A DNA stretch of 64,000 nt from Bdellovibrionales bacterium (GTDB lineage Bacteria; Bdellovibrionota; Bdellovibrionia; Bdellovibrionales; UBA1609). The position numbers and the translations under genes are program-made. The notes under the pieces are model-generated. The model was not told the DNA's origin. It ran no database searches and worked only from the letters and a program-made list of their open reading frames with translations. Where the stretch lies: the NCBI GenBank assembly GCA_965237565.1, contig OZ250145.1, forward strand, positions 62,023-126,022. The letters are read 5' to 3'. Shown here piece after piece: positions 1-55,584 of this stretch. Each line of letters starts with the position of its first letter. Within the stretch, counting starts at the first letter, position 1.

Positions 1-2466
1 ATTACAATTCCTACGACCACCAAAAAACCACGCCCACTGAGAATTACAATTCCTATTGGTAGCTAGGGGGAGGGGGACTCGTGTGGGGTTGGAAGTATCT
101 TGCAACACATTTAGTAAACGAACTCCGCTAGGATTGCCGGGTGTAGCGTCTTTGTTGAAAAATAAAGCGTAGGGATTTTCTTGTGCTACACTTGCCCATG
201 GAACAGAAGAGGCTACTCGACCTCCTGCATCTCTTTCAAGAGCTACCCATATCTTTCCTGCACCCACATTTAAAGCTTTTTGAATATAGCTACTTACTCT
301 TTCAGAAAGAAAACTCACATTGTAATTGGAGGGAGCAAAAAACATACCCCTTGTCGCATTATTAATAAAATTATATTTGTTTTTTGCTTTACTGGCAAAA
401 AATTTGTTCCCATCGTCTGCTCTGTTTGCAGAAGCCTGCACTCTGTCAGGATCTGCTGAGTACATTTTTGCAAAATAATTTTTCAAGCTTTCCCAATTAC
501 CAATTTCTCTTCCCATTTCATAACAAGCATTTTCAGCATTTTCAAATGTGGTCCTTACAATTGTAGGAGCTGCATTGAGGTTTCTTGTATTCACTTTGAA
601 GGCAGGAATATAATTCCCGTTAAAGAAGCAAAGAACAGGCAATTTTTGATCGCAACTTTCTGCTTGAAAAGTATTTTCTGCAAAATTTTGAAACGATTTC
701 TCATTCACAATCTTCATGGCAATACAAGGAGGTTCTCCTAGAGGATTTTCAGCATTGCGAGGAAATCGGAATCGTGTTTTATACCCTTTGGTAGAGGTCC
801 CGTAATAGCCAACACTAGGATTGGCGCCACATTCTGGAATTTGGCTGTCCAGAGCTTCATCAAAGAGTCCATATATTCTCGTAGTCTGCGGTGCCTGCCC
901 CCCTACGGAAACAGAACGCTCCTTAGTGAAGAGAGGACCAAAGGTTCCCAAACCCAATCGATGACAAGATTTTGTGTGGCAGACTGTACAGGATACCTTA
1001 TCTTCTGGACCATTAAAGATTTTTTGTATTTTACAACTGGAAAAACTGCTTCCATCAGACAATTGTACGCCTACAAAAGGATAGGCCTGAGAATCTTTAC
1101 CTTTGCTGCAAATCGCAGAGCAAAGGTTTTGTACTGCCCAATTCCCCTTCGGTCTGCCTGTGAGCGAGGTACCACTTTGCTCAGTTGTGACTTTGAAACG
1201 ATCTCCACCATTGTAAAGATAGCGTTCTGTTCTCAAATTTTTGTTAGCTGGAATCGCAGAATCTTCACTTCGATCTTGGCTCACAGATGGAGAGGCATTC
1301 TGCATATTAATTCCATAAATTTGTCCATCCTTTTTGACCAAGTTGATACTGATTTTTTTTATTTTTTTCTGAGAGCCACTTCTGTTGAAAACACCAAATG
1401 AAAATTCAAGCGGATCAAAAGTACCTCTCAGGCCACTCAGGCTACTCGACCTACACCTAAATTCGTGGCTCGTACAACTTACTTTGGCATTTAGAGCGGA
1501 TACAGAACTCAAGACCCCTCTGCCATCTATTTGACCTACCTGAACAACATCTGCATTCAAACCACTGATTGAAAAATCATTGCATGTATTCTCTTCCATC
1601 AGAGAACTGTTGATGACATTTTGACTGAGTTGTTTCCCTGTTCCAGTCCCTGAAAACTGCACAACAACCCAATTACCTCCTTGGTTTCTTACATGGCATT
1701 CTCCTACACTGTTGGCCCACATAATATCTGATTGTGAACTCACATAGGGCAACTCCTCCGTTGCTGAACTCCCCTTTTTGCCATCCTGTTCATCATTATT
1801 GGCAGAACTGGACACAAAATTCGAACCAATACCGGTGATTTGAGTCTTTAGTTCAAAGAACACTTGTTTGGGATCTAGAGATTCATCCTTTGTTGTATCA
1901 ATAATATCCAAACTGGGAAATTTTCTGGGAATGATTTCAGCGATTACATAAGCTGGCTGGCTTGTTCTTGTCGAGCCTTGTTCTCCTAGATACTTTAAAC
2001 AACGACGAAATTTGCTATTTACAGAAAATGATGTATCTATTTTTTTGCAGTGGCTTGTATCGATCAACAACTTCCATTCAGATTGTGGAAAAAATACCTT
2101 CCAACGACTTTCTCCCCAATTGGAATTGTCTGCATTCATTCGAAGAAAATTCAGTCGCAAACTCTCCACTCCTGAGCTCTTTTGAGGGTTCTTAACCAGA
2201 GAACAAATACCAAATTCATTTCGCTGGGAGGCCTCGCCTGTCTGACTGATTTTCTTTTCGATCAACAAAGATCTGAGATTGTCGAGTATGACCATCCTTA
2301 GTGCTGGCTGGTAATTCACTTGAAGGATTGTGCTTTTCATCGTCTTTTTAAAATTCTGCATGTAATGTACCAAACCCATGGTACTCACACCCATCACCCC
2401 TAGTGCAAACAAGCCCCCTATAAGAGAACCCCTACTAGAAAGTAAAACTCGTTTTCTCGTTTTCAA
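1..2466 (-). CDS. Large prepilin-like (PilX/GspK-type N-terminus) Cys-rich surface protein with C-type-lectin-like motifs; 3'-partial, >822 aa; not in the ORF track
   Basis: Manual translation gives an open frame from TTG 2466 to base 1, with an AGGAGG RBS at 2475-2480. N-terminus MKTRKRVLLSSRG|SLIGGLFALGVMGVSTMGLVHY (basic leader, Gly, hydrophobic helix). Later motifs CDQKLPVLC, FENAENACYEMG and IWVAL. Confidence 0.8.
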   Translation of the reverse strand, partial: MKTRKRVLLSSRGSLIGGLFALGVMGVSTMGLVHYMQNFKKTMKSTILQVNYQPALRMVILDNLRSLLIEKKISQTGEASQRNEFGICSLVKNPQKSSGVESLRLNFLRMNADNSNWGESRWKVFFPQSEWKLLIDTSHCKKIDTSFSVNSKFRRCLKYLGEQGSTRTSQPAYVIAEIIPRKFPSLDIIDTTKDESLDPKQVFFELKTQITGIGSNFVSSSANNDEQDGKKGSSATEELPYVSSQSDIMWANSVGECHVRNQGGNWVVVQFSGTGTGKQLSQNVINSSLMEENTCNDFSISGLNADVVQVGQIDGRGVLSSVSALNAKVSCTSHEFRCRSSSLSGLRGTFDPLEFSFGVFNRSGSQKKIKKISINLVKKDGQIYGINMQNASPSVSQDRSEDSAIPANKNLRTERYLYNGGDRFKVTTEQSGTSLTGRPKGNWAVQNLCSAICSKGKDSQAYPFVGVQLSDGSSFSSCKIQKIFNGPEDKVSCTVCHTKSCHRLGLGTFGPLFTKERSVSVGGQAPQTTRIYGLFDEALDSQIPECGANPSVGYYGTSTKGYKTRFRFPRNAENPLGEPPCIAMKIVNEKSFQNFAENTFQAESCDQKLPVLCFFNGNYIPAFKVNTRNLNAAPTIVRTTFENAENACYEMGREIGNWESLKNYFAKMYSADPDRVQASANRADDGNKFFASKAKNKYNFINNATRGMFFAPSNYNVSFLSERVSSYIQKALNVGAGKIWVALERDAGGRVASSVPWASVAQENPYALFFNKDATPGNPSGVRLLNVLQDTSNPTRVPLPLATNRNCNSQWAWFFGGRRNCN

Positions 2467-2511
2467 TTACCAAACCTCCTGTTTATAAGCTATTTTCCTT
2501 GCCCTAGTTCC

Positions 2512-3876
2512 TCAATGAGCTGGTATGAATCGAATGACCACTTGCTCAAAGCTAGTCGCAACTGTAGCGTTTGCATCAGCCGGAATAAATATTCTTTTCG
2601 GCTCAATATTGGTGTATAGACAAGTGCCTGTTTCTCCCGCCTCGTTCTCACAAGTCTGGTCTGCATTGTCGGGCGAACAGCTCTTTGTTAACACCCCTCC
2701 AACCACCATTTGATTATCCTTTACGCAATGTCCTCCATCCAGACGATCCATCAAATAAGACACTTTTACCATATCTGAGGCGTGCGTATTCACAGAGACT
2801 CCGCCTCCTCCGCTTCGTCTGATATATTCTAGGCTATGCGTACAATCCACAGTGTCCTGTACAGTGATCGACTCTCCAACAAGAAGAACTTCCCTGTTAT
2901 TGTCACTCAATATATTGGCCTTCACAGAATAAGTCTTCTTATCACTACTTCCTTCTTTCGGTAATTCACTCCTCAACAAAGAGAGATCATACATAGCTCC
3001 TGGTCCTCTATTGGTTATTGTCAACTCTAATGGTGCATCACCTTGTGAATCTACCGAGCTTCCCTGTGCCAACTGGTCATCACCTCGGCATCCAGGATAA
3101 AGGTTCGCTCCCGAGGAGGAAGCACAAGATAGTTCACATTTTGGACGACTCGTGACCTCGACAACAAAGGAAGTCAAAGGCCTTCTCACACCTGCGTAAA
3201 CAATTTGATCTGCTTGAGCATCAGATTGGCTAGGTATTTTCACGTTAATCAACACAATCCAGTAATCTTGATCCACGCGCGAAATGTACTCACATATGGT
3301 GTTCTCTACCAAACCACCTTCCGCATCCTTACAACGTGTAGAAGGAGCAGAAGGAACATCACAGACATAGTCACTGATGACTTGCAAAGTGGAACTATCC
3401 CGACAAACCGCTCTTGGGATTTCACCGATCAAGCCCTTTATGTGAGAGTCTTTCCAATTCACCAAATTAAAAGTGAGTTCAAATTCTTGTCCTCCCGTTT
3501 GGGAGCCACTCATAGTCACGGTGCCTGCAAATTGTAATTTTTCGCCATTTTTGACATTGGATAATCGAAAATCTGTCAACTTAGCTTGGCCATCGTTCCA
3601 TTTGCATTTGCGATCTCCTTCTCCTTCCCATCCACCCTGTCGACACAAGATAAGATTGTTAGAAACCAAGTAGCTGCCCAGAATGAGAGCATACTTGGGG
3701 GAAAAGGCATCCGAGTTAACATCTTTTTGCTTGCTAGATATAAAATTTACAGCATTTTGTTGCGTAACAAAAATCGTACCCGCAACACTAGCCGAAACGA
3801 GAAGAGACAGGACGATCGCGGCCGAGCCTTTGGGTGATTGAAGGTGTTTTCTCAATCTTTTTATATTATCTTTCAT
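2512..3876 (-). CDS. Prepilin-like (PilX-type) Cys-rich protein with an Ig-like (DUF11/CARDB-like) segment
   Basis: Likely ATG at 3876 with GGGAG RBS (track start 3945). N-terminus MKDNIKRLRKHLQSPKG|SAAIVLSLLVSASVAGTIFV. Motif LTITNRGPG...LLVGESITVQDTV. Many Cys. Confidence 0.7.
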   Translation of the reverse strand: MKDNIKRLRKHLQSPKGSAAIVLSLLVSASVAGTIFVTQQNAVNFISSKQKDVNSDAFSPKYALILGSYLVSNNLILCRQGGWEGEGDRKCKWNDGQAKLTDFRLSNVKNGEKLQFAGTVTMSGSQTGGQEFELTFNLVNWKDSHIKGLIGEIPRAVCRDSSTLQVISDYVCDVPSAPSTRCKDAEGGLVENTICEYISRVDQDYWIVLINVKIPSQSDAQADQIVYAGVRRPLTSFVVEVTSRPKCELSCASSSGANLYPGCRGDDQLAQGSSVDSQGDAPLELTITNRGPGAMYDLSLLRSELPKEGSSDKKTYSVKANILSDNNREVLLVGESITVQDTVDCTHSLEYIRRSGGGGVSVNTHASDMVKVSYLMDRLDGGHCVKDNQMVVGGVLTKSCSPDNADQTCENEAGETGTCLYTNIEPKRIFIPADANATVATSFEQVVIRFIPAH

Positions 3877-4064
3877 AGCTACACTCCCTATTCTGGTTAC
3901 CAACATGTCAATTCTAACAGCTAGTACGGATCTGATGCCAAACAACTATAATCAAAAAATAAATAAATAAATTGATTTATCATTTTGAAACACTTCATTT
4001 GTACAGAATACAAAAAATATTTCAATGAATAGACAGTAAAATGAAAACAAAACTATAGCACTTC

Positions 4065-4562
4065 TTAATTCTTGTCTGGAGGAACAGGCTTTTTATAGAT
4101 ATTTTCACAAGAAATGAAGAAAAATTCTTTGCTATTTAGTTCGTAGGGTTGCAGACAATAGGAATCAGCAATGAGTAAGACTTGCCCATTATTATCCAAC
4201 TCTACAGAACGTTCCAAAACACAGTAGGTGCGAGTAACGGATTGATCTGCCAAACCAATTCGAACGGGAACTTCATTGAAACGAATCGTCTCATCTAGAT
4301 TAAATAGCTTTTTCCACAAACCACAGCCTGCCTCCTCCCCTTCGCCGGGCTGATAATCAAAAATTCGAACATTATCGGCGATACTGCAAGAAACTGGCTG
4401 ACCATATTGGTTGATCCAAGTTTTCTTTTCTTGACTGTACTGGTACTGACTGCAATGAGTCCCGCCTGTTTCAAGGGATTGGAGCTTGCATGAAGATGCA
4501 AAGCATACAGACCCCGCCACCAAGAAAACAATTTTATACATTTGACGAAAATTCAAGAACAT
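4065..4562 (-). CDS. Hypothetical Cys-rich lipoprotein
   Basis: Hydrophobic signal ending FASS-C, followed by six further Cys. Confidence 0.65.
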   Translation of the reverse strand: MFLNFRQMYKIVFLVAGSVCFASSCKLQSLETGGTHCSQYQYSQEKKTWINQYGQPVSCSIADNVRIFDYQPGEGEEAGCGLWKKLFNLDETIRFNEVPVRIGLADQSVTRTYCVLERSVELDNNGQVLLIADSYCLQPYELNSKEFFFISCENIYKKPVPPDKN

Positions 4563-4593
4563 TCCAACCCTTAACAGTTATAAGCAATAGCCA

Positions 4594-6591
4594 CTAATAT
4601 CCTATCACAATTCTAGGCTTTCTTTTCGTTTTTCTCTGTTTTACAAGTGAGAATTCCATCTTAGCTTTCACTTGTCTGGAATCGACGGTGACCACTTTAT
4701 CTCGGTAGTTACGCTTTCTGAGCATTAATGTTACAACCTGATTCTGAGGCAACTGAATCACCGTTGGCGTAAGATATGGAACTTTCTTATCGTTGAGATA
4801 AATCATCGCTCCAGAAGGTTTAGTCGCTATAAAAATTTTCCTAGTGGCAGGAGTTGCAATTGACCTAGTGGGTGTAGGAGGACCCTGAAGAGATCCCCGA
4901 GCAGGACGATGATTCACAATGGCTCCGGGTCTTTTTGGCTGGGCAACAGCTACTTTGGATTTTTTTGGAGACTCCGCTGGAGACTGTTTTTCAGCCCATG
5001 CCCCGATCTTTTCAGAGAGATAGTGACGAATATCTGACCGGAAGAAAAAAGCTGAAAAGCCAATGGAAGCAAGAAAGATTGAGGCAATTGCAATGGGAAA
5101 GATTTTTTTTGCTCTTCCCTTCCTCTTTTTGGATTTTGTTGCCTTTTTCCCCATACCACGATCGATAATCAAACTAGAATTCGTCTTTCCAATTTGACTC
5201 CTCCGGGTCAAGGGTATGATTTTGCGAAGAGGGTCCAAACCCGTAACTACCACGTTGTCATATAAACTCTTACTCAAACTTTTTATTTCAGAACCAACAG
5301 AGTGGGAGATCAATTCATCAGTGAATTTTGTTTTTGTCAATTCTTCCGATTGTTCACTCAGATCCGCTTCTGTTTCTGTGTATTGCATGTGATCAGTAAA
5401 ACTTCTGTAAATCTGTTCCGCTTCTGTTTTTGTTTCCTCTTTTTCGTCATGAATCAATTCATACGTCTCTTCTTCTTGGATTTTGCTAGGATTCTGGGTT
5501 TTTTCATGCTTTTTTTCAAGATCTTCCCTATGACCAATAAACGAGGAACTTTCATCCTCTGCAACAGAATAGTTAATGGAGCTGTTTCTCAAAAATCTAG
5601 ATGCTGCGTATGTTTCAGCCAAAGCTTCTGAATACATTTTTAACTTTTCTCTTTCTTCTAAAATTTCCTCCATGTAAATCGCTCGAATAAAAGAGCTAAA
5701 TTGATTTTGCGTAAAATTGGGATATTCTGTATTCAAAAAAACAGAGAGGTCATTCGCCATTTCTACGACAGTTTGGTATCTCAAATTACTGTTAACATGT
5801 AAGGCCCTATTTACAATCTCTATAACTTTATCCGGAACATTTGGATTGATCCTTTTCAAATCAGGAATATTGCATAGCTTGATCTTTTTCATTAACTTGA
5901 TTTCGGTGGAGGCTGTAAAAAGTTTTTGGCCGGCTAGCAATTCCCACAGTATATTTCCAATCGAAAAAATATCTGTTCTTTTATCCAGCACTTCTCCTCC
6001 CACTTGTTCCGGACTCATGTATTCGAACTTGCCTTTTAACACTCCGGCCCTTGTGGCTTCGGAATCACTCATTTTGGCAATACCAAAATCAATGACCTTT
6101 ACGTCCCCATTAAAACTAATCATTATATTTTGCGGACTAATGTCCCGGTGAATAATATTCAAAGGTTGCCCTGTAACACTATCCGTACAATTGTGGGCAT
6201 GATCCAATCCCCAGCAGATATTCCTAATAATGTGTATACATTTTTCCACACTCAGTCGCATCTTCTGGCTAGTTAGCTTTTTAATTAATTGTCGCAGGTT
6301 GCAACCGGAAATATACTCCATACAGATAAAATACTGGTCCTTTTCTAAACCGAATTCATAAATAGAACCAATGTTGCTGTGATTGAGATTGGTTACAATC
6401 TTACCCTCATTTTGAAACATCTTGTTAAATTCTTTATTGTTGGAATGAGTAGGTAATATTCTTTTAATGATGATAAACTTGTGTGCACTTTTTACAGAAC
6501 CTGTACAGCCAAGAAAAATCTCAGCCATTCCTCCGACAGCAATTTTTTTAAATAATTTAAATTTACCAAAATCTGTTACTTTTAATTTCAT
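4594..6591 (-). CDS. Hanks-type Ser/Thr protein kinase with TM helix and C-terminal PEGA-like domain
   Basis: GGMAEIF, IIIKR, HRDISPQN, DFG, GKFEYMSPEQ; TM IFPIAIASIFLASIGFSAFFF; PEGA-like IATKPSGAMIYLND..TP. Confidence 0.95.
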   Translation of the reverse strand: MKLKVTDFGKFKLFKKIAVGGMAEIFLGCTGSVKSAHKFIIIKRILPTHSNNKEFNKMFQNEGKIVTNLNHSNIGSIYEFGLEKDQYFICMEYISGCNLRQLIKKLTSQKMRLSVEKCIHIIRNICWGLDHAHNCTDSVTGQPLNIIHRDISPQNIMISFNGDVKVIDFGIAKMSDSEATRAGVLKGKFEYMSPEQVGGEVLDKRTDIFSIGNILWELLAGQKLFTASTEIKLMKKIKLCNIPDLKRINPNVPDKVIEIVNRALHVNSNLRYQTVVEMANDLSVFLNTEYPNFTQNQFSSFIRAIYMEEILEEREKLKMYSEALAETYAASRFLRNSSINYSVAEDESSSFIGHREDLEKKHEKTQNPSKIQEEETYELIHDEKEETKTEAEQIYRSFTDHMQYTETEADLSEQSEELTKTKFTDELISHSVGSEIKSLSKSLYDNVVVTGLDPLRKIIPLTRRSQIGKTNSSLIIDRGMGKKATKSKKRKGRAKKIFPIAIASIFLASIGFSAFFFRSDIRHYLSEKIGAWAEKQSPAESPKKSKVAVAQPKRPGAIVNHRPARGSLQGPPTPTRSIATPATRKIFIATKPSGAMIYLNDKKVPYLTPTVIQLPQNQVVTLMLRKRNYRDKVVTVDSRQVKAKMEFSLVKQRKTKRKPRIVIGY

Positions 6592-7279: not shown

Positions 7280-10018
7280 ATGTTCAAACTAATTGAATGG
7301 ACAAACTTTCAAGATAAAAAAGAAATTTTATCCAAATTTGATCCGGAAAAGAGTTTATGGATCACTTCAGATATTAAATCCAAAATATTTATCTTAGGGC
7401 AACTCAGACAAAGAGGCTTGTCCTTAAGCGAAAAGTGTGTTGTAAGAGCCTCAGATTTTTGGAGATCTCTTTTACTAAAGACCAATTTACAAAAGCAGGT
7501 GGTTTCCGAGTCTCTTTTGGTTTTTATTTATGAAGAGTGGGCCAAATCCCAAAAGCAAGATTGGAAAAAAACTCGTGAAACTGGACGAATAGTCTGTCAA
7601 TTTTTAGACGCCAGCATCCATCTGATCAAGCATCCCAACAGAGATTCTTTAATGCAGGAGTGGTTTCAAATAAAAAAACAAAAATGGAAGTGGTGTTATG
7701 AGTTGGCCATTCATTTTTGGCACCACTTGGAAAACAAGAACATGATTGCTTCTTCTTGGGCTGATGCCTATTTACTAGATCAGGTAAAAATGGATTCTTT
7801 TCATTTTGAAGAAATAATTTTTGATTTGCATTTTGATATCAGCCCCCTGGAAGCTGGGCTAATCACAGAAATAGCTTCGAAAACAAAATCTAAAATAAAA
7901 ATTCTTGCACCCCTTTGTTTCAAAAATAACAAATGGGAAATAGCCGACGCTGTTTATGCATGCTTTCATGAGAAAAAACCAAAAGAAGAGCCTCACGAGG
8001 AAAAACCAATCATTGAGTCAATATCTATCAGAAGATTTGCCTCCCAATTGGCTGAAATCAAAGACATTGTTAGTGAAGTGAGAAAAGCCCTTAAGAGAAA
8101 TGTATCTCCTTCTCGAATTGCAATCATCAGTCCACAGGTCGAAAACTATTGGCCCGGGCTGAGCAGTTATTTTCGCATAGAAAATATACCTGCCAACAAA
8201 AGAGAAACAGTCCCCCTATCCAGCTTTCCCATGATTCAATTCTGGCTTGCCCAAATGTGGACTCATCTATCTGTGGTGAAATATGAAAATCTAGAATGCA
8301 TGGCTCGCCATCAGAACACAGAAACTCATTTTGGCAAATTTCAATCCCGCTTCTATTACGCAACTCAAGTTAAGCAAATTCCTTCTGATCTAATTGATCA
8401 AAAACAATTAAAAAATAAAAATGAAACTGTTGATTATTTCAAATTTAAGGAATGGGCTTTGCAGTTTTATTCTAAGAAAGATGACTCTCCCCCTGTTACT
8501 CAAGCTGTTGAAGAGTGCGTACATGAACTGTCCCAATCGGCCAAGGCTCTCGCAAGAGAATCAATACGCTGGAAAAATTGGCTATCTTTTTTGGAAACAT
8601 CCTTTCGCAGTAAAGAAGTGACAAAAAAAAACGAAAATCCCAATGGGGTTCATTGCTTGAGCTTTAATGCTATAGGATGGCTGGATGCAGATTTTGTTTA
8701 CATTGCTGGTCTCAATGAACAAAATATGGCTCCGCAACATTCTTCTCCAATACCTCTAGCAGACGCTCTTTCCATTCAAAAAGATTTGGGCTTTTTTTTA
8801 CAATCCACTCCTCATGATAAATTAGAAAAAATCATCTCCCAATTCATAGATCGAAATCAAAAACAAATTATTTTATCTTTTGCTTCTAGTGATTTTCATG
8901 GAAATCATTTTAACCCTTCCAGTTTGTGGCTGAAGAAAGCTTTGTCCTATAAAAAACCTCACCAAGAGATGGATACTCCCGGCACTACTTTGTGGGACGA
9001 AAAACAAAAGAGAAAAAAGGTTTCCGAAATTCTAGTCGATCAAAAATTTCAAAACTCTAACAAATCTCTCATTGAAAAATCAATTGAGGAGGATATGGGC
9101 AGGAGCAAGCTCCCCTCTTTCCAGCCAAACAGCTTAAAAAAATTGTCTGCTTCTTCCCTAGCTGATTATGTAAGATGCCCTTTCATTTTCGCAAGCAAAA
9201 ATTTGTTCGGACTGTGGGATGAACCCATTCAAGACGTAAATATGAGTTTTTTGGATCGAGGTCGTTTGATTCATAAAATTTTTGAAAAATTAAAAAAGGA
9301 AAAAGAATCCGATATCTCAGAATCAGATATTTTGTATCTGATAGAAAGCATAAAAGAAGATAAAGAATTTGAGTCACAACTGAGGTTCTTACACCCGGTT
9401 TCTTGGGAAATAGAGAAAAAATCCATCCTAAAAATTGCACAACTTTTTTACCTCCACGAGAAAAACAAAAAAGAAATACTGAAAGGATACGAAACTATTG
9501 GTTGTGAAGTCGAATTTTGTGGTGCTTGGAGCTTCGAAAAAAAATCTTTGCAAGCCATAGGAGACATTCCTTTCAAGGGGAAAATAGACCGTCTGGATGC
9601 GAGTCAAGATAGTTATTTACTCATCGATTACAAAGGCTCTTTAGCTACAGGATCAATTGCCAACAAATGGGCGAGTGAGGGAAATTTCGGCTTGGCTTTT
9701 TACATGCAAGCAATTGAAAAAGGTCTTACCTCCCTACCCCCTCACGATGTAAAAGTGGCTTTGTATATGAGCTACAAAGATTTCACCTACCAAGGCTTTG
9801 CTCTAAAAGAAGAACCATTCATTCACTGGATCGGAAAGAGAAAAAAATCCCTACTCTCTCCGGAACAAAAAATTTCTATCCAAGAAGAAAGTAATCACAA
9901 AATCAATGATTTTATTTTACACATTCAAGCGGGGCAATTCCCCCCGGAACCGCAAAAGAAAAGTATTTGCGAGAATTGTAGATGGAGAAATATATGTCGA
10001 GCCACTCACCTCAACTAA
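7280..10018 (+). CDS. addB: AddB-like subunit with C-terminal PD-(D/E)XK nuclease and Fe-S cysteines
   Basis: LSASSLADYVRCPF, GRLIH, GKIDRLD...IDYKG, CENCRWRNIC; overlaps the downstream helicase gene. Confidence 0.8.
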   Translation: MFKLIEWTNFQDKKEILSKFDPEKSLWITSDIKSKIFILGQLRQRGLSLSEKCVVRASDFWRSLLLKTNLQKQVVSESLLVFIYEEWAKSQKQDWKKTRETGRIVCQFLDASIHLIKHPNRDSLMQEWFQIKKQKWKWCYELAIHFWHHLENKNMIASSWADAYLLDQVKMDSFHFEEIIFDLHFDISPLEAGLITEIASKTKSKIKILAPLCFKNNKWEIADAVYACFHEKKPKEEPHEEKPIIESISIRRFASQLAEIKDIVSEVRKALKRNVSPSRIAIISPQVENYWPGLSSYFRIENIPANKRETVPLSSFPMIQFWLAQMWTHLSVVKYENLECMARHQNTETHFGKFQSRFYYATQVKQIPSDLIDQKQLKNKNETVDYFKFKEWALQFYSKKDDSPPVTQAVEECVHELSQSAKALARESIRWKNWLSFLETSFRSKEVTKKNENPNGVHCLSFNAIGWLDADFVYIAGLNEQNMAPQHSSPIPLADALSIQKDLGFFLQSTPHDKLEKIISQFIDRNQKQIILSFASSDFHGNHFNPSSLWLKKALSYKKPHQEMDTPGTTLWDEKQKRKKVSEILVDQKFQNSNKSLIEKSIEEDMGRSKLPSFQPNSLKKLSASSLADYVRCPFIFASKNLFGLWDEPIQDVNMSFLDRGRLIHKIFEKLKKEKESDISESDILYLIESIKEDKEFESQLRFLHPVSWEIEKKSILKIAQLFYLHEKNKKEILKGYETIGCEVEFCGAWSFEKKSLQAIGDIPFKGKIDRLDASQDSYLLIDYKGSLATGSIANKWASEGNFGLAFYMQAIEKGLTSLPPHDVKVALYMSYKDFTYQGFALKEEPFIHWIGKRKKSLLSPEQKISIQEESNHKINDFILHIQAGQFPPEPQKKSICENCRWRNICRATHLN

Positions 10019-12255
10019 AATTGCAAATCATTAGAGCAGGAGCAGGAACGGGAAAGACCACCGCATTGGTGCAAAATCTGATGAGTCGCATTCGGAATTA
10101 CTATCAAGAAAAAAACAAATTTCCAAGGGTAGCTGTTTCCACTTTCACCCGCAAGGCCACTCGTGAATTGAAGGAACGTTTGATATGGGAGGCCATCAAA
10201 TCCAAGGATAAAGAACTGATTCAGTATATGAGCCACTCTCCCCTTCTCCAAATGGCGACTCTTCATGGCATCTTCAATCGACTGTTACAAATTCATGGGC
10301 ATTTTATTGGACTCAGCCCTGGCTTCAAGATCATGGAAGAGAAAGAATCACAGCAGTTGCTCAGAGGGATTTTAAAAAAAGAAATATTGGAACACCAAAG
10401 AGGACTTCCTTTGCTGGAACATTATTCCTTTGATGAAGTCGCTTCGCTGGTAAACAAATACATCGCCTATGCAGGAGAATATCCTTCTACGCAACCGGCA
10501 AGCTCGGAGGAGCTAAAGCAGTACTGGCTTCAGGAAAAAGAGAAAGTTTTGCAAGAAAAAATGACGGATAACAAAAGAAATTCTCTATTACAAAAATTGG
10601 ATGATGAGAAAAATCTCTTTCCTCTTTTTTCCAGTTTGTCTTCTGAATTGTCCAAGTTGGCTGAAAAAGTCTGGCAAGACTGCAAGCAAGAAAAAATTGA
10701 GAGATCACAAATCACAATGAGTGATCTAGAAATATTGACTCTGGAATTGGTACAAAAGAAAAATTCACCGGCGATTTTTTCTCAGAATCAATGGGATTTT
10801 TGGTTTGTGGATGAGTACCAAGATACCAGCTTTCTGCAACAAAAAATACTGGACTTTCTAAGCCAAGACAGTTGCGTTTTTCTTGTGGGTGATCCACAAC
10901 AAAGTATTTATTATTTTCGCGGAGCAGAAGCTTCTGTCTTTTCCAAAAAAGCAAAAGATTTGCAAAATATGAAGGGAGGAAAACTAACAGAACAGAGAAA
11001 AAATTTCAGATCAGATGCTGAGTTGATTGCTTTCTTCAATAATTTTTTTCCAGAACCATTCGAGAAAATGGAAACTCCTCAAAAAACGTATGAAAAAGAA
11101 AAAGAAGTGGCTCGAATCATTTGGATTCATAATTCAGAAAAAAAAGCTGACAAAAATGAAATAGAATACGAAGAGGCCCATCATAGGGTGAAGTATTTTC
11201 TCTCCAAAGGAGTCAGAGCAGAAAATATCACCATATTAAGCCGAAGAAACAAAAAACTGCATGAATTGGCCCAGTATCTAAAAAATAAAAATATACCTGT
11301 TCAGTTGCATTCAGCCGGCAATTTTGAAAACAAAAGAGAAATCAAAGATGCTTTATTTCTACTTTATTTTTTGCTAAATCCCAACAACGATGAAAACCTC
11401 ATCGGACTTCTAAGAACTCCTTATTGCCGTATTCCAGATGAAAGCTTAGCAAAATGGGTCGAAAAAAAACAAGCTCTCAATCGATACACTCCCCTGTGGT
11501 CCATTTGTTTGAATGAGGGAAAAACACAAAACGTCATAAAGAAACTTACTGATTTTTTAGAGCAAACAAAATGGATCGGTATTACAGAAAGCTTTCAAAC
11601 TGCAATAGAATCCTTAGGCTTTATTGATTTGGCTTATTATCAAGATCCAACCGGCCTGCGGGAAGCCAATTTATGGAAACTCATTTACCAGATCAAACAA
11701 TATGAACGAATGGGATCTAGTTCTTTGTGGGCATTTGTGGATCGTTTCTCAAGACAAAATCTTGGGCTGTCAGGAGGCGAAGATGTGTATGAATCTCATC
11801 AAGTGGTCTCCGCTCTTGAAACTTCCAGTATACAGATGATGACTGTCCACGGAGCCAAAGGTTTGGAATTTGATCACGTCATTTTGCTTGGCTTATGTGA
11901 TGGCTTCAAAAAACAAGTTGGATTTCAATATTTTATAGAAGAAAAGGACAAAAAAAGATGGTCCTTATGTGTAAAATCTGATCTGCAACAAAAAAGAATC
12001 AAATCTCAATTTCATCAAAAAGCTCTGGAAAAAGAACAGGAATTGGAAATGAAAGAATCGGATCGTCTTCTCTATGTAGCCCTAACTAGGGCCAAAAAAA
12101 CTGTTACATTGGTGGGAGCTGGCAAAGCAGAAAATCACTCATGGGCAAAGCGTTTTCCCTTTTTTTCTACTCTTCAAGAGGGCTTGGTCGAAAAGGAACA
12201 GTATTCCTATTTTGTGCAAAAAATCCAATGCCTGGAAAAACTTCCCTCAAGCTAG
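9982..12255 (+). CDS. addA: AddA-like UvrD/SF1 helicase without a C-terminal nuclease domain
   Basis: AGAGTGKT, TFTRKATRELKER, VDEYQDT, VGDPQQSIYYFRGA, NFRS, MTVHGAKGLEF, RLLYVALTRAK; ends ~50 aa after motif VI. Confidence 0.85.
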   Translation: MEKYMSSHSPQLKLQIIRAGAGTGKTTALVQNLMSRIRNYYQEKNKFPRVAVSTFTRKATRELKERLIWEAIKSKDKELIQYMSHSPLLQMATLHGIFNRLLQIHGHFIGLSPGFKIMEEKESQQLLRGILKKEILEHQRGLPLLEHYSFDEVASLVNKYIAYAGEYPSTQPASSEELKQYWLQEKEKVLQEKMTDNKRNSLLQKLDDEKNLFPLFSSLSSELSKLAEKVWQDCKQEKIERSQITMSDLEILTLELVQKKNSPAIFSQNQWDFWFVDEYQDTSFLQQKILDFLSQDSCVFLVGDPQQSIYYFRGAEASVFSKKAKDLQNMKGGKLTEQRKNFRSDAELIAFFNNFFPEPFEKMETPQKTYEKEKEVARIIWIHNSEKKADKNEIEYEEAHHRVKYFLSKGVRAENITILSRRNKKLHELAQYLKNKNIPVQLHSAGNFENKREIKDALFLLYFLLNPNNDENLIGLLRTPYCRIPDESLAKWVEKKQALNRYTPLWSICLNEGKTQNVIKKLTDFLEQTKWIGITESFQTAIESLGFIDLAYYQDPTGLREANLWKLIYQIKQYERMGSSSLWAFVDRFSRQNLGLSGGEDVYESHQVVSALETSSIQMMTVHGAKGLEFDHVILLGLCDGFKKQVGFQYFIEEKDKKRWSLCVKSDLQQKRIKSQFHQKALEKEQELEMKESDRLLYVALTRAKKTVTLVGAGKAENHSWAKRFPFFSTLQEGLVEKEQYSYFVQKIQCLEKLPSS

Positions 12256-48295: not shown

Positions 48296-48309
48296 GTATT
48301 TAACCGCCC

Positions 48310-49743
48310 TTATTCATAATCTGTGTCACCATCTACAAAGTCCAACTGGTATTTCCGCAAGCGATATCTAAAAGCTCTCAATGACAAACCTAGCAAGCTG
48401 GCTGCTTCTGTCTTCACTCCATTAGCTTTCTTAATTGCTTGTAGCAAAAGATCTTTTTCTATATCTCCAACTACCTCTTCCATGTTGAAGCCCTCCTCCG
48501 AGAGAGAAATCTGAGGAATTGGAACAGTCTCTGTCGATAAAGAAAGAATCTGATTTTTAAAAAGTGGAACAACTTCTTCCTTGGTAATGATATCTCCTTC
48601 GCTTAAAACGAGTAATCTTTCAACCAAATTTTCCAACTCACGAACGTTTCCCATATAATTATACTCTTGAAATAATTGCATAATTTCGTCAGATAAATTG
48701 ATTTCCATACTTCGATGTAATTTTTGTTGGTGCTTTTTCAGGAAATACCGAATCAAGAGGGGAATGTCTTCTTTTCTTTCTCTCAGAGGAGATATATGTA
48801 TATTCACCACATTTAAACGATAATACAAATCCTCTCTAAACGATCCTTCTTTTATCATATGTTCCAGTTCCCTATTGGTAGCTGCAATCAAACGTACTTT
48901 TATTTTTTTATCTTGTACTGCACCTACTTTTCGAATGACTTTTTCTTGCAAAGCTCTGAGAAGTTTGGGTTGAACAGGCAAAGGCATGTCCCCAATTTCA
49001 TCTAAAAATAGACTTCCTCCGTCTGCAGATTCAAAAAAACCTTTTTTGTCTTCAATTGCACCTGTGAAGGAACCTTTTTTATGACCAAACATCTCGGATT
49101 CAAGTAACTCATCTGGAATGGCTCCACAATTTACAGGTATGAAAATAGAATCTTTTAACTGGCTACTGTTATGAATGGCCCGAGCTATTACTTCTTTCCC
49201 TGTTCCACTTTCTCCAGTAATCAAAACATTGCTCGTGGAATGAGAAAGTTGCTCAATCGTCTTATGGATTTTACGCATAGCTGAAGACTCACCAATGAGC
49301 GGAATTTTTGATATTCCTTGTTCCCCCTTCTCATCAGGAAATTCCACATCTTCCTTTGTGTCCTGTAATTTGAGGCTTGAAAGAATGAGATTTTTAATCT
49401 CGTTCACGTTGAAGGGCTTAATGATATAGTCATAGGCTCCCATCTTCATAGCCTTTACAGCAGTCTCTGTCGTGTCAAAGGCTGTGATCATTATGAAAAT
49501 GCTATGGGGATTGATCTTCTTGGCTTCTTTCAGGAGATCCAAGCCAGATGCATGAGGCATTTTTAAGTCAGAAATAATCATATCGAAAGACTTTTGATTT
49601 ATTAAGTGCAGAGCCCTTCGACCATCTTCAGCCAAGGTGACTTCAAACGTATCTTCCGAATCAAAGGAAATTTTTTTTATTAGGATTTGAAAAAATTCAC
49701 AAATAGATTTTTCATCATCCGCAACAAGAATTTTTTTATACAT
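48310..49743 (-). CDS. pilR: Sigma-54-dependent response regulator PilR
   Basis: REC (ADD, D, T, K), GESGTGKE, GSFTGA, FLDEIG, FREDLYYRLNV, HTH; follows pilS. Confidence 0.88.
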   Translation of the reverse strand: MYKKILVADDEKSICEFFQILIKKISFDSEDTFEVTLAEDGRRALHLINQKSFDMIISDLKMPHASGLDLLKEAKKINPHSIFIMITAFDTTETAVKAMKMGAYDYIIKPFNVNEIKNLILSSLKLQDTKEDVEFPDEKGEQGISKIPLIGESSAMRKIHKTIEQLSHSTSNVLITGESGTGKEVIARAIHNSSQLKDSIFIPVNCGAIPDELLESEMFGHKKGSFTGAIEDKKGFFESADGGSLFLDEIGDMPLPVQPKLLRALQEKVIRKVGAVQDKKIKVRLIAATNRELEHMIKEGSFREDLYYRLNVVNIHISPLRERKEDIPLLIRYFLKKHQQKLHRSMEINLSDEIMQLFQEYNYMGNVRELENLVERLLVLSEGDIITKEEVVPLFKNQILSLSTETVPIPQISLSEEGFNMEEVVGDIEKDLLLQAIKKANGVKTEAASLLGLSLRAFRYRLRKYQLDFVDGDTDYE

Positions 49744-49752
49744 ACCGACTGA

Positions 49753-51429
49753 TTAAGCACTTTCTCTTTGTGCCAACTCCCTAACAGAAAAAGTGGAATG
49801 AATAGGGAAACGAAGTGTACACACCACTCCCTTTGGCTGATGATTCTCTAGAAAAATCTCACCTTTATAGAGCAAGACAAATTTACGTGCAATGGCCAAA
49901 CCAAGACCACTTCCACCTGATTTTCTTGAATAAAATGGATTGTAAATATAAGGAAAATCTGCATTTTTTATTCCTGTTCCATTGTCTTTTATTTTGATTG
50001 TGACCCATTTATCGTCGTCAAAAGTTTCTATCTTCAAATTAGGTTTTTGAGAATCTTTCATAGCTTCACAAGCATTCTTAACCACATTCAAAAAGATTTG
50101 TTTGAAGCGATCAAGGTTTCCTTCAATCAATCCCTGTGCTTTCAATGTAATGTGAAGGGTGATAGCCTCCCATTGTGGAGTCACACGGACCTGATCCAAT
50201 ACGCTCTCCAAAACAGAATTCACCGAAAAAACCTCTAGCTTCTCAGTTCTAGATAGAGAGGATTCGTTGCTTGTATAATCCATAAAGTCTCCAATGATCT
50301 TGTTCAGTCTGCTCACTTCTTGCAATACAATATCCATCAATTTTCTATTTTGAGAACGAAGGGGTTCATTCCACTCCATGAGCTGAATGCTTCCGCTGAT
50401 GCTGGAAAGAGGGTTTCTTAACTCATGAGCGATGCCAGTTGCCATTTTTCCAATGTGAGCAAATCTTTCCTCTTCTCTTTCTGATTTCTCCCTTTTGTGA
50501 CGTGTAGTACAGTCTTGAAAGAAAATAAGATATTTATTGGACCCTCCCTTAGTGAGAGTAAAAGGTGATGCAAAGGCTTCTATTATTTTTTGTTCGCTTG
50601 ACTCAGAAGGATACGCAAACTCGAAATGATTCATGTGCGTACCTTCCTGCTGAGATGTGTGTAAATCCAAATCGGGAAATATGCTCTTTAAAGGAGCAGA
50701 AAAAGTGGGAGGTAACTGGAGAGTTTTAAGCGCTGATGGATTTGCGTAAATAACAAAATTGTCTTCATTTACAATAAAAAGCCCCATCTTCATCTTTTCT
50801 ACAACTAATTCGCTAAAATTTTCTAGCTCATCAAATGCCCTATTGACCATTGATAAAGACCAATTCATTTTTCTCACTTGGGAGCCAAAGAGACCGCTCA
50901 ATCCCGCTACACTTAAAAAGATAAAATTGTTGATGGCAAAATTTACTAGAAGAGAACCACCTACTTCATCGGAATTCAAAATGAGAACCCATGAAAATAA
51001 CAAGGAAATAAAAAGTGCATGTAAAAAAGCCCCTCTGTATTGGCTCACCAAACCTGTGCCAACAATTTGAAGCAGGTATACAAAAATCAGTATGGGCTGT
51101 GAAACAGGAAGGACGACACTCAAACAAAGAGTCATCAAAAGAGTTTCCAGTAGTAAGAAAAACCAAAAGAAATGAAATGACTTTTTGATCTTGTTATGAA
51201 AGAAAAAATATAGAGCATCCTTTAATAGGGATAGAAAAAGCATTGAATAAATAAAAACCCAAACGCTTAGATTGAGAAATAGAGGTTGAAAAAACTGATA
51301 AAAGACAAAGCCCAATAACAAAAAAGAATGAATAATAGAATGCAAGCAATAAACAAAAAAGTATTTACTCTCTGGCTGGTGAAAAAAAGAAGATATGGTA
51401 TGAGTACGGAATGCCCTTATATCTCTCAT
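49753..51429 (-). CDS. pilS: Sensor histidine kinase PilS
   Basis: 6 TM, PAS, IAHELRNPL, NVVKNA, DNGTG, GSGLGL; follows pilC. Confidence 0.88.
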   Translation of the reverse strand: MRDIRAFRTHTISSFFHQPESKYFFVYCLHSIIHSFLLLGFVFYQFFQPLFLNLSVWVFIYSMLFLSLLKDALYFFFHNKIKKSFHFFWFFLLLETLLMTLCLSVVLPVSQPILIFVYLLQIVGTGLVSQYRGAFLHALFISLLFSWVLILNSDEVGGSLLVNFAINNFIFLSVAGLSGLFGSQVRKMNWSLSMVNRAFDELENFSELVVEKMKMGLFIVNEDNFVIYANPSALKTLQLPPTFSAPLKSIFPDLDLHTSQQEGTHMNHFEFAYPSESSEQKIIEAFASPFTLTKGGSNKYLIFFQDCTTRHKREKSEREEERFAHIGKMATGIAHELRNPLSSISGSIQLMEWNEPLRSQNRKLMDIVLQEVSRLNKIIGDFMDYTSNESSLSRTEKLEVFSVNSVLESVLDQVRVTPQWEAITLHITLKAQGLIEGNLDRFKQIFLNVVKNACEAMKDSQKPNLKIETFDDDKWVTIKIKDNGTGIKNADFPYIYNPFYSRKSGGSGLGLAIARKFVLLYKGEIFLENHQPKGVVCTLRFPIHSTFSVRELAQRESA

Positions 51430-51432
51430 TAT

Positions 51433-52647
51433 TTACACTCCCGACACAACACCGGCCATTTTAAATATGGGCAGATACAAGGAAATAACAATAAATCCAA
51501 CCATTACACCTAATACAACAATCAAAAATGGATTGATTAAATCAGAAATCGAATCAGCCGTCGTGCTTACTTGTTCTTCATAAAATTCAGCAACCTTTTC
51601 TAAAGTTGCATCCACATTTCCTGACTCCTCCCCGATTGCCACCATATGCGAAACTAATGGAGGAATCACAGATTCGTTTTTTAAGGCATTTGAAATAGTA
51701 TCCCCTTTGCCTACTTGATTTCTGATTCTTTGTATGGCCGTTTCAATAAAAAAATTGTTTGCCGTAAAAGAAGACGTATCCAAGGCTTCTAAAATATTCA
51801 CACCTGAAGCCATCAAGCAAGATAAAGTCCTTGTAAAACGAGCAATACTATTTTTAATGGCCAGACCGCCAAAAATGGGGAGCATCATGATTATTTGGTC
51901 TTTCAGTACTCTCCCACTTGGCGAACGAAGATACATGAGACCAACGAAGGGAAGAACGATAAAAACCACTGCAACCAACACGAGATTGTTGCCTAGAAAA
52001 CTGCTAGCACTTAGTAACAACTGAGTCATGATAGGGAGTTCTACGTTCGACTCAAGAAAAACACCAGCCAACTGTGGAACAACAAAAATAATCAACAAGG
52101 TGACAATAGAAACCCCAATGAGGAGAATAAACCCTGGATACATCATCGCTTTCATTACTCGGGATCTTATTTTCTCAGTCTGTTCGATATATCCAGCCAG
52201 TTGCTCAAGCATACGATCCAGATTACCACTCGTCTCACCTGAGCGAATCAAGCTAACAAACAGCTGACCAAAAACAGAGGGATAATTCGCTAAAGCCTCT
52301 GAGAGGGATTGTCCTCTCTTGATATCCTGTATTATGCTATTGGTGACTTGTTTCAAAACCATTGATTGACAGATTTCTCTTACAATTTGGAGTCCCTGCA
52401 CAATAGGAATTCCAGCTTTTACAAGAAAAGCCAATTGTCTCGTGAACTCGACCAAAGATTTTAATTTAACTGTTTGCTCCCCGCTACCCAGAGCAAAGAT
52501 AGATTTCTCCATGTGGATAGAGATGGGTTCTAAATTTTTAGAGTTCAATCTCTCTATGACATCTGTTCTTGAGTCAGCTTTCAGTTTGCCTGAAAATGTT
52601 TTCCCACTCTCGGCTTTAGCTCTAAATCTAAAAGTTCTCATTTTCAA
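51433..52647 (-). CDS. pilC: Type IV pilus platform protein PilC
   Basis: FTRQLA, GETSGNLD, AMMYP, GEESG, LYLPIF. Confidence 0.95.
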   Translation of the reverse strand: MKMRTFRFRAKAESGKTFSGKLKADSRTDVIERLNSKNLEPISIHMEKSIFALGSGEQTVKLKSLVEFTRQLAFLVKAGIPIVQGLQIVREICQSMVLKQVTNSIIQDIKRGQSLSEALANYPSVFGQLFVSLIRSGETSGNLDRMLEQLAGYIEQTEKIRSRVMKAMMYPGFILLIGVSIVTLLIIFVVPQLAGVFLESNVELPIMTQLLLSASSFLGNNLVLVAVVFIVLPFVGLMYLRSPSGRVLKDQIIMMLPIFGGLAIKNSIARFTRTLSCLMASGVNILEALDTSSFTANNFFIETAIQRIRNQVGKGDTISNALKNESVIPPLVSHMVAIGEESGNVDATLEKVAEFYEEQVSTTADSISDLINPFLIVVLGVMVGFIVISLYLPIFKMAGVVSGV

Positions 52648-52679
52648 TAATCTCCAATTGAAAAAATTGTTTTCACACT

Positions 52680-53765
52680 CTACGCAGTTTTCCTACCACC
52701 CTTTTTTCTCGTGAGCATCTCATCCAACTCAGCGTGATCTCCACTCACATTGAAGGCTGCGTCTTCCGTAATCAAACCCGACTTCAATAGTTCAAACAAA
52801 GATTGATTCATCGTGATGAATCCGCTGGTCCTTTGCGTTTGCATAATACTATAAATTTGATTTTGCTTTCCTTCTCTTATTAAATTCCTCACAGAGGGAG
52901 GAAACAACAAAACTTCCACAGCTGGCACTCTCCCCTTTCCATCAGCGGTTGGTAGCAAGCTCTGACACATGATACCCTGAAGAACGGAGCTGAGTTGGTA
53001 CTGAACCAACTTGCGCTCTTCCCCTGAAAACACTCCTGTGAGCCTTTCAATGGCACTACAAGCACTGTTCGTATGAAGAGTTCCAAAAGCCAAGTGTCCC
53101 GTTTCCGCAATTTGCAAAGCGTTTTCAATTGTTTCTCTATCTCTCATCTCACCTAGCAAACAAACATCCGGGTCCATTCTCAGAGCAGCCTTCAAAGACA
53201 TCGCAAAACTTTCAACATCCAGACCCACTTCTCTTTGATTCACAATGGCTTTCTCATGTGGATACACAAATTCAATAGGATCTTCTATCGTGATGATATG
53301 ACATTTTCTTGTTTTGTTAATTTCATTAATTATGGAAGCCAAAGTGGTGGATTTTCCCGAACCCGTTGGACCAGTGATTAATATCAAGCCATAAGGTTTT
53401 TTACTTAGTTCGTGAAGAACTGGAGGGAGTCCAATATCAGAGAGTTTCGGAATGTGTGTGGGGATGTGACGGAAGGAACCCGCCACGGTTTGTTTTTGGT
53501 GGTAGAGGTGACCACGAAAACGACCATATTTTTCTATCCCAAAACTGAAATCCAAATCCTTGTGAGATTCAAAATGAGCTTTCTGTTCGTCCGTAATAAT
53601 TGAATAACAAAGCTCCTTACTCTGTTGTACTGTCAAAGGATCTACATTCAGACGAATGATCTCTCCATTCACCCTCAAGCCAGGGGCTGTCCCTGGGGTA
53701 ATATGGATATCAGATGCCAATTCTCGCACAGCAGTTTTCAGAATTTGCACTAATGAGATCCTCAT
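52680..53765 (-). CDS. pilT: Type IV pilus retraction ATPase PilT
   Basis: ASDIH, GPTGSGKSTT, TIEDPIE, GEMRD, AETGH, TLHT, SVRNLIRE. Confidence 0.96.
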   Translation of the reverse strand: MRISLVQILKTAVRELASDIHITPGTAPGLRVNGEIIRLNVDPLTVQQSKELCYSIITDEQKAHFESHKDLDFSFGIEKYGRFRGHLYHQKQTVAGSFRHIPTHIPKLSDIGLPPVLHELSKKPYGLILITGPTGSGKSTTLASIINEINKTRKCHIITIEDPIEFVYPHEKAIVNQREVGLDVESFAMSLKAALRMDPDVCLLGEMRDRETIENALQIAETGHLAFGTLHTNSACSAIERLTGVFSGEERKLVQYQLSSVLQGIMCQSLLPTADGKGRVPAVEVLLFPPSVRNLIREGKQNQIYSIMQTQRTSGFITMNQSLFELLKSGLITEDAAFNVSGDHAELDEMLTRKKGGRKTA

Positions 53766-55544: not shown

Positions 55545-55584
55545 GATACACCTTAGTCTTGTTCGTTGGAGATCCTTCCACTTC

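Follow-up and report, generated by a model that had tools for sequence, protein, structure and literature searches.

A giant pilin-related protein family of Bdellovibrionota with probable C-type-lectin-like modules, a candidate for a type IV filament tip

We analysed a stretch of 64,000 nucleotides (hereafter the window; G000:C1:62023-126022) from the genome of a Bdellovibrionales bacterium (GCA_965237565.1), which consists of one contig of 1,331,856 bases and is 94.18% complete. At the edge of the window lies a minus-strand open reading frame (ORF) of 822 codons (window 1..2466), which begins with a TTG start codon (2464-2466) and has no stop up to the first base of the window. This ORF is the beginning of a gene for a giant pilin-like protein, the subject of this study. 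A Shine-Dalgarno sequence, AGGAGG (2475..2480, minus strand), is located 8 nt before the start codon. Flanking DNA was fetched, and the complete gene was found to span G000:C1:61189-64488 on the minus strand, encoding 1099 amino acids (aa) followed by a stop codon. The window holds the first 822 of the 1099 codons; about 277 codons (G000:C1:61189-62022), for the last part of module A, the whole of module B and the C-terminus, lie beyond it. The GC content of the gene is 0.40-0.42, similar to that of the adjoining sequence. The frame is a genuine gene, because it has 26 full-length homologues and 22 of its 24 cysteines are conserved. An earlier interpretation made from the letters of the window (the sequence-only reading) had noticed this frame of more than 822 codons and proposed that it encodes a fusion of a pilin with C-type-lectin-like modules, serving as a glycan adhesin at a pilus tip. 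The frame is confirmed, and the strings quoted from it all stand where they had been read: the N-terminus MKTRKRVLLSSRG↓SLIGGLFALGVMGVSTMGLVHY (the arrow marks the putative cleavage site here and below), CIAMKIV...FQAESCDQKLPVLC (residues 581-613, window about 628-726), TTFENAENACYEMG (residues 640-653), MFFAP (residues 708-712) and KIWVAL (residues 738-743, window about 238-255).

The giant protein matched no Pfam or NCBIfam model at an expectation value (E) of 10 or below. A search of 5.8 billion clusters found the 26 further full-length homologues (1044-1278 aa, E<=1e-104), none of which is named or carries a Pfam domain. A profile of 27 close sequences retrieved 175 representatives at E<=0.001, 129 of them at E<=1e-30, from 1.84 billion proteins; many of these are 850-1050 aa long and some 1500-1845 aa. 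With the same profile, the family turned up in 5 of another 120 genomes from the order and in 19 of another 300 from the phylum. With the protein itself as query, homologues were found in 13 of 40 relatives, namely in 12 of the 14 congeners, in 1 of 10 genomes from other genera of the family and in none of 16 from other families of the order, and identity is 22-41% even inside the genus. The distribution of the family, whose members are 850-1800 aa long, is patchy within Bdellovibrionota. Genomes of this genus are small, 1.3-2.3 Mb versus 2-4 Mb for most of the order. The gene is single-copy in its own genome; five copies are present in one relative (G011) and three in another (G012). Contig loci of the relatives were located by an alignment-based scan, as a single-protein scan gave none.

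The N-terminus of the giant protein resembles that of type IV pilins. A basic leader of 13 residues, MKTRKRVLLSSRG (2428..2466, minus strand), has a net charge of +5 and ends in a Gly that is invariant in the family, and prepilin peptidase would be expected to cut after this Gly13. The leader is followed by the hydrophobic alpha1-N segment SLIGGLFALGVMGVSTMGLVHYM (2359..2427, minus strand). The short basic leader with Gly at -1 and a run of about 20 hydrophobic residues (SLIGGLFALGVMGVSTMGLVHY) are features of type IV pilins; a further one, Glu at +5, is missing and Gly stands there. The N_methyl model (PF07963) did not match the giant protein at E<=10. In an AlphaFold model of the whole protein (predicted local distance difference test score, pLDDT, 70.2; predicted template modelling score, pTM, 0.63), residues 1-52 had a pLDDT below 50, and helices were predicted, with low confidence up to that point, at residues 18-24 and 29-69.

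Comparison within the family revealed where this N-terminus came from. Distant members have a canonical class III start (G↓F-S/T-L-I/V-E), for example ...KG↓FSLVE... and ...QG↓FTILE..., and the group of the giant protein itself starts with ...[KR]G↓S-x-L-[IV]-[SG].... N_methyl matched 2 of 27 close members at E<=1, and 9 of 38 distant members at E<=0.01, four of which were above the curated cut-off; one distant member is named in its source as 'prepilin-type N-terminal cleavage/methylation domain-containing protein'. In a diverse alignment of 50 members, no residue other than Gly occurs at -1, and the majority consensus reads GxSLxExLxA. Positions 1-58 of the profile made from these 50 members matched solved type IV pilins, namely Geobacter PilA-N (9egp, E 5.2e-5; 7tgg, E 1.1e-4) and, more weakly, a PilA (E 0.047) and TcpA (E 0.12). 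In two genomes free of the family, the same profile matched only small ordinary pilins, via positions 1-57. These matches indicate that, at the level of the family, the N-terminus is homologous to pilins. We then counted Glu5 in 138 members of at least 800 aa, in 128 of which the signal was recognisable (in 10 it was not): none of 35 close members has Glu at +5, versus 61 of 93 distant members. A FastTree phylogeny of 63 sequences (every second close member and 45 random distant ones of 1250 aa or less, midpoint-rooted) placed the proteins without Glu5 in a single clade of 21 tips with support 1.0, and elsewhere 31 of 42 tips retain Glu5. In the clade of the giant protein, Glu5 was thus lost once, secondarily, inside a true pilin family. 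Gly at -1 and the short basic leader are retained in every member with an intact N-terminus. The sequence-only reading had described a class III-like signal that lacks Glu5, and the family alignment, the matches to solved pilins and the Glu5 census bear this out.

Behind the signal, the rest of alpha1 and an alpha/beta 'head' (residues 37-215; 1822..2358, minus strand) contain three conserved cysteines, and residues 51-215 were modelled at pLDDT 70-89. In the model the helix at residues 29-69 is followed by strands at 131-134, 154-159, 172-182 and 202-212, an order that is compatible with a pilin head. The next region, residues 241-440 (1147..1746, minus strand), is rich in beta strands and is the most divergent one among recent paralogues. 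Residues 241 to about 500 gave generic matches to immunoglobulin-like (Ig-like) beta-sandwiches, and Foldseek with the whole model returned Ig-like tandem matches only. Residues 441-535 (862..1146, minus strand) form a Cys-rich middle domain. Conservation across the family is highest here, in the motif C-T-V-C-[HY]-T-K-[AS]-C-H-R-x-G-L-G-T-F-G-P (residues 493-511, window 934-990), in which C493, C496, K499 and C501 are invariant across 50 sequences. Reading C-T-V-C-H (residues 493-497) as a haem c site was rejected, since many members, and also the majority consensus of the 50 sequences, have Tyr in place of this His; a disulfide or metal knot is more likely for the motif. Of the 24 cysteines in the whole protein, 22 recur in 26 or more of 27 aligned sequences, and because of these 22 conserved cysteines export of the giant protein is plausible. 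With some 860 residues of beta-sandwich and alpha/beta modules behind a pilin-type N-terminus, the protein has the composition by which modular pilins are defined in PMC8179133.

Three further modules follow. Module 0 (residues 536-631; 574..861, minus strand) contains the CIAM...C..LPVLCF string and four conserved cysteines. Module A (residues 632-875; 1..573, minus strand) continues past the edge of the window and comprises a helix with the conserved C648, a FINNA-RG-F-AP motif, WVAL and an end ...LPYLC869K. Module B (residues 876-1045) lies outside the window. Modules A and B aligned with each other weakly in the close alignment (hhalign E 0.011), and in the 50-member alignment at E 9.7e-5 (probability 58%, 130 columns), compared with 0.09-0.67 for six control region pairs, so that they are likely a tandem duplication. 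Module A also contains an insertion of 43 residues (residues 794-836; window 1-87 and beyond), which is found only in this protein among 27 homologues. The two remaining cysteines of the protein lie within this private insertion, which includes the near-repeat NRNCNSQW / RRNCNSQF and was modelled at pLDDT<50.

Several weak lines of evidence agree that modules A and B are probably diverged C-type-lectin-like folds. Residues 630-1045, folded alone, had a pLDDT of 60.8, with 78-91 for residues 844-930. When this model was compared with 48,161 PDB representatives, 38 of the 50 best rows were C-type lectin-like domains (two of the 38 were assigned by inference from chain ranges). The structural neighbours include SP-A, SP-D, conglutinin, tetranectin, langerin and PLA2R, and C-type lectin-like domains were the commonest neighbours of module B. 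For each module, 29 of 30 matches by language-model features were Lectin_C clusters, with scores of 0.89-0.91 for B and 0.90-0.91 for A. Against a Lectin_C reference profile built from three canonical domains of this order, which were found in 4 of 151 genomes, hhalign gave E 0.024-0.035 for A and B and 0.1-0.66 for control regions. All 27 aligned sequences have C648/C869 and C894/C1039, which stand where the outer disulfide of such domains would be expected and would pair to form it, and a WIGL-like WVAL occurs twice, at residues 740 and 957. The two tandem modules share with Lectin_C (PF00059) the Cys-bearing helix, the later W-V-A-L strand and the C-terminal ...LC strand. On this evidence module B probably has a C-type-lectin-like fold, and for module A the same fold is somewhat less certain than for B. 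The Lectin_C model itself matched neither the giant protein nor a six-frame translation of the genome at E<=10, Foldseek with the sub-model of residues 630-1045 found nothing at E<=0.001, and a PDB sequence search with modules A and B gave one irrelevant match (E 1.5). The sugar-site motifs EPN, QPD and WND are absent from modules 0, A and B. Calcium-dependent sugar binding by modules A and B is unlikely, and glycan binding is not supported. Module 0 was also considered as the remnant of a C-type lectin and rejected, as its hhalign E values (0.087-0.23) are too near those of the controls (0.1-0.66). Of the lectin modules proposed by the sequence-only reading, the one read from MFFAP and KIWVAL is module A, which probably has the fold; the CIAM string belongs to module 0, which is too near the controls to count as support. 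The claim of a glycan adhesin is not supported: the sugar-site motifs are absent, Lectin_C is unmatched, and paralogues vary mainly elsewhere in the protein.

Directly upstream of the giant gene lies a partner gene, known from the ORF listing and the loci of relatives (2512..3945, minus strand). It is an ORF of 477 codons with a likely start at the Met of codon 24 (window 3876), and its product has a pilin-like N-terminus without Glu5, ...SPKG↓SAAIVLSLLVSASVAGTIF. A match of the partner to NERD (E 0.15) was below the cut-off and was taken as noise. A partner homologue is found directly upstream of the giant gene in all 17 related loci with upstream DNA (18 pairs); an 18th locus holds only 20 upstream bases, so it was left out of the count. 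Clustering of all ORFs from the 17 loci revealed no other conserved neighbour. The kinase, the 165-aa ORF, the NAD kinase and CorA of the window are not part of the unit, which we call the cassette. The first two of these are encoded immediately upstream of the cassette (window 4065-6591, minus strand). The kinase is a Ser/Thr protein kinase of 665 aa (Pkinase E 3.9e-40), and the 165-aa ORF has a hydrophobic N-terminus; the adjacency of either to the cassette is not conserved in relatives.

In distant loci the unit includes a third gene. At four of four such loci (two in G137, one each in G061 and G112), a partner of 407-465 aa is followed by a giant pilin of 847-958 aa with Glu5 and then by a pilin of 331-337 aa, and all three third genes that were scanned exceed the N_methyl cut-off. 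Large fibre-like proteins that carry a Peptidase_S74 chaperone domain, and RCC1-repeat proteins, are encoded within about 6 kb of these three-gene operons (L076:46-3354; L076:14849-18436; L074:1408-3990; L075:15968-18658), possibly by chance. In the genome studied here, a homologue of the third gene is located at G000:C1:807940-809211 (E 3.6e-12); it encodes 423 aa starting ...RKG↓FSLVEVIISL and scores 22.1 bits with N_methyl. The 40 relatives divide in the same way for this third pilin and for the giant pilin: 13 have both and 27 have neither, among them the congeners G009 and G010, in which a profile search did not find the giant-pilin family. The third pilin is single-copy in the genomes that have five or three copies of the cassette. 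This pattern fits one shared base pilin that serves several cap pairs.

Variable paralogues, for which the sequence-only reading had suggested looking, were found in G011, where four recent copies of the giant gene (78-87% identical) accompany an old one (28-29%). The variation peaks at residues 241-440, where the four recent copies are least alike (52-74% identity), and identity is 86-98% in the head, 74-95% in module A, 90-100% in module B and 94-100% in the C-terminus. The corresponding partners are 84-100% identical in the N-terminal half and 39-77% in residues 261-477, save one window of one pair (97%). Among the four paralogues, the variable half of the partner tracks residues 1-440 of the giant protein (rho 0.99-1.00; 1.00 for residues 241-440 and 0.99 for residues 1-70), and no such tracking is seen from residue 441 onward (rho -0.35 to -0.66); these ranks rest on six non-independent pairs. 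Co-variation as evidence for contact between the two proteins was rejected, since it equals what physical linkage and a recombination break near residue 440 give. The recent copies (L024, L026, L027 and L029) are mosaic, with some module pairs 100% identical beside regions of 52-76% identity. This mosaicism suggests gene conversion among the copies with a break near residue 440. If there is any specificity region, it is the beta-sandwich region together with the C-terminal half of the partner and not the lectin-like modules.

Three type IV filament systems are encoded in the genome, a type IVa pilus (T4aP), a type II secretion system (T2SS) and a Tad pilus, together with two A24 prepilin peptidases, seven T2SSE-type ATPases over the cut-off and four secretins. 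The genes pilB (592 aa), pilT (361 aa) and pilC (404 aa) are found with a two-component pair in the window itself (about 48300-55550, minus strand; G000:C1:110332-117566), and pilB-pilT-pilC is about 46 kb away from the cassette. A PilD-type A24 peptidase and a secretin are encoded near 891-897 kb. The T2SS operon (178-188 kb) has its own G, H, I and J and a K-like protein of 423 aa without Glu5. The Tad locus (490-500 kb) comprises a TadZ-TadA fusion, the second A24 peptidase and small pseudopilins, and a lone TadG lies at 517-519 kb. The fusion-like protein has 749 aa (G000:C1:496697-498946, plus strand), and such a TadZ-TadA arrangement is reported for B. bacteriovorus in 10.64898/2026.07.08.737194. 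Beyond the T2SS set and the third pilin, there are only two N_methyl pilins, both orphans, and T4aP is the only system without a visible minor-pilin set of its own. The Tad (PF13400) and TadE (PF07811) models did not match the cassette genes at E<=10, and only the lone TadG scored above the Tad cut-off; the N-terminal signal is of the T4aP/T2SS type rather than the Tad type. Because T4aP has no minor-pilin set of its own and the ancestral signal is of the N_methyl type, T4aP is slightly favoured as the filament. PilX_N (PF14341) had no match in the whole genome at E<=10. PilY1 was over the cut-off in none of 41 relatives, and 14 control genomes were likewise without a match. The idea that the cassette replaces PilY1 was dropped, as PilY1 went undetected in all 41 relatives and in the control genomes too.

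From these results we propose that the giant protein is a modular minor pilin of a three-pilin type IV filament tip complex, a reading that we consider probable, with considerable room for doubt. The basic leader and hydrophobic alpha1, homologous to a class III signal, would anchor the protein in the inner membrane, where prepilin peptidase would cut after Gly13. The giant pilin would then join the 477-aa partner, which lacks Glu5, and the single-copy 423-aa pilin, which has it, and the three-subunit complex would prime and cap a type IV filament. The absence of Glu5 is consistent with a cap, and PMC9934059 argues likewise for GspK and PilA. Beyond the pilin head, about 860 residues would extend outward at the tip and do the binding: Ig-like beta-sandwiches, the Cys-knotted middle domain and a tandem pair of modules that are probably C-type-lectin-like, with perhaps 11 disulfides or so holding them. 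Incorporation into the filament, the position at the tip and adhesion would all follow from this arrangement, and prey or host surfaces are candidate ligands. Duplication and divergence of the cassette would yield alternative tips. The pilin-lectin tip fusion of the sequence-only reading survives here in its pilin homology and its probable lectin-like fold; glycan binding is not supported, and PilX_N is unmatched. A more specific version may be considered tentatively: in this small-genome genus an adhesin would be built into the pilin itself, and the single-copy Glu5-bearing base pilin would take interchangeable two-protein caps, of which duplication has made up to five copies and recombination new combinations, with specificity in the beta-sandwich and the C-terminal half of the partner and a common function for the conserved lectin-like modules. 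If this is true, the Kil 'adaptable tips' of Myxococcus would have a T4a-type analogue in the interchangeable caps, and the caps would contribute to setting the range of prey or hosts.

Several points weigh against a filament-tip pilin. The giant protein itself matches no pilin model, and in its clade neither Phe+1 nor Glu5 survives (35 of 35 close members); with such decay of the signal, the protein might no longer be processed or polymerised. The beta-sandwich filled the fold searches with the whole model, so that these did not reach the head, and residues 1-52 are those of low pLDDT. The cassette adjoins no pilus machinery. Two congeners that lack both the cassette and the third pilin keep a PilT orthologue (61-68% identity), therefore T4aP can exist without the cassette, and an attempt to assign the cassette to one machine by phyletic pattern failed for this reason. 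The co-occurrence counts come from kin genomes and represent very few independent events. Some of these points would suit a different explanation, in which the pilin signal has decayed to a plain membrane anchor and the protein is a disulfide-rich binding protein of the surface or periplasm outside any filament. The double loss of Phe+1 and Glu5, the missing Pfam N_methyl match, the separation of the third pilin from the cassette in this genus and the low confidence of the 52 N-terminal residues are all in line with it. However, a mere anchor would not be expected to keep Gly at -1 and a basic leader in every intact member, tip pilins of the GspK and PilA types are assembled without Glu5 according to PMC9934059, and the Glu5-bearing third pilin is kept with an exactly matching phyletic pattern. 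We regard a plain anchor as improbable.

The filament could also be another than T4aP. The cassette might encode the tip complex of a Tad (Kil-like) pilus, as the counterpart in Bdellovibrionota of the KilL-KilM-KilN 'Tips' of Myxococcus. The layout resembles that described in PMC12075869, which reports heterotrimeric tips, a large pilin of unknown fold, four paralogous clusters and predicted tip-like complexes in Bdellovibrio, and the genome has a Tad locus with a TadZ-TadA fusion like that of B. bacteriovorus (10.64898/2026.07.08.737194). In addition, position +1 became Ser in the clade, and a pseudopilin of the Tad locus in the same genome starts ...QRG↓SLTVQF; near one distant cassette, at a distance of about 1.3 kb, there is a TadG-like gene (Tad domain E 3.2e-9). 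The ancestral N-terminus, however, matches N_methyl and T4a pilins, the cassette proteins are unmatched by the Tad and TadE models, the HMMs (hidden Markov models) of the family miss the TadG and the TadE/F-like ORFs of this genome at E<=1, and the Tad system already owns a TadG. A Tad tip is therefore unlikely in our view. A component of the T2SS pseudopilus tip or a cargo-docking subunit would share N_methyl-type signals, which are common to T2SS pseudopilins, and the genome has a complete T2SS operon; that operon, however, is already supplied with G, H, I, J and its own K-like protein, large adhesive modules are unexpected on a periplasmic pseudopilus, and the cassette lies about 115 kb away, which makes this role very improbable. 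We favour a minor pilin of a three-pilin tip, with T4aP as the slightly preferred filament.

How Bdellovibrio-like predators recognise and hold their targets is an open question, and T4aP, Tad pili and fibre adhesins are discussed as candidates for attachment in PMC12075869 and 10.64898/2026.07.08.737194. The giant pilin family adds a concrete candidate for target recognition. If it forms a tip complex, the principle of modular pilins extends to predatory diderms, with defined regions for specificity; if it is merely another large minor pilin, about 175 unannotated protein clusters gain an annotation. Two other observations were made in this genome. A second giant ORF (G000:C1:976039-978927, plus strand; 962 aa with 77 cysteines) has an N-terminus of Gly and hydrophobic residues, ...SQSG↓VGLIGVMISAAVMV; it is missed by the family HMM and surrounded by housekeeping genes. 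In the window, the genes for a PD-(D/E)XK nuclease of 912 aa and a UvrD-type helicase of 757 aa share 37 bases (7280-12255, plus strand) and resemble an AddAB/RecBCD pair.

The C-type lectin-like entry is IPR001304. Modular pilins number more than 1,200 proteins with 264 architectures in PMC8179133, whose Dataset S1 lists three proteins that combine a pilin with IPR001304, and their role as tip adhesins is established (PMC8179133, PMC9934059). In Streptococcus sanguinis, PilB is a pilin with a von Willebrand factor A module, PilC is a pilin with Ig-like and concanavalin A (ConA)-like lectin modules, and both belong to a PilA-PilB-PilC tip complex (PMC8179133, PMC9934059), in which the lectin-bearing PilC is part of a three-pilin tip begun by a subunit without Glu5 (PMC9934059). 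The giant protein resembles PilB and PilC, as described there, in its pilin module, its bulky Ig-like and lectin-type modules, its Glu5-less partner and the proposed three-pilin tip. It differs from them in its size, which is more than double theirs, in its origin from a predatory diderm lineage and in having extra modules without a database signature; unlike them, it lacks Glu5 itself and has 22 conserved cysteines, and its gene lies away from pilus operons with up to five cassette copies per genome. With GspK and PilX it shares the lack of Glu5 and the tip position proposed from that, but it has no PilX_N match, is 3-5 times larger and lost Glu5 secondarily, within a family whose other members keep it; the 477-aa partner without Glu5 may be the better K analogue. 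The KilL-KilM-KilN proteins of the predator M. xanthus offer another parallel in PMC12075869, with three minor pilins, one of them large and of unknown fold, dispersed paralogous clusters and exchangeable tips. A similar layout is seen here in the three-gene operon of four of four distant loci and in the five and three cassette copies of G011 and G012. Kil tips are homologues of TadE/F/G according to that source, whereas the cassette signal is of the N_methyl (T4a/T2SS) type and no homology to the TadG of this genome was detected. The modular-pilin design itself is already known in other bacteria. New here are a nameless, signature-free family restricted to Bdellovibrionota, its secondary loss of Glu5, the multiplied two-gene cassettes with a shared third pilin and, likely, modules that are C-type-lectin-like rather than ConA-like.

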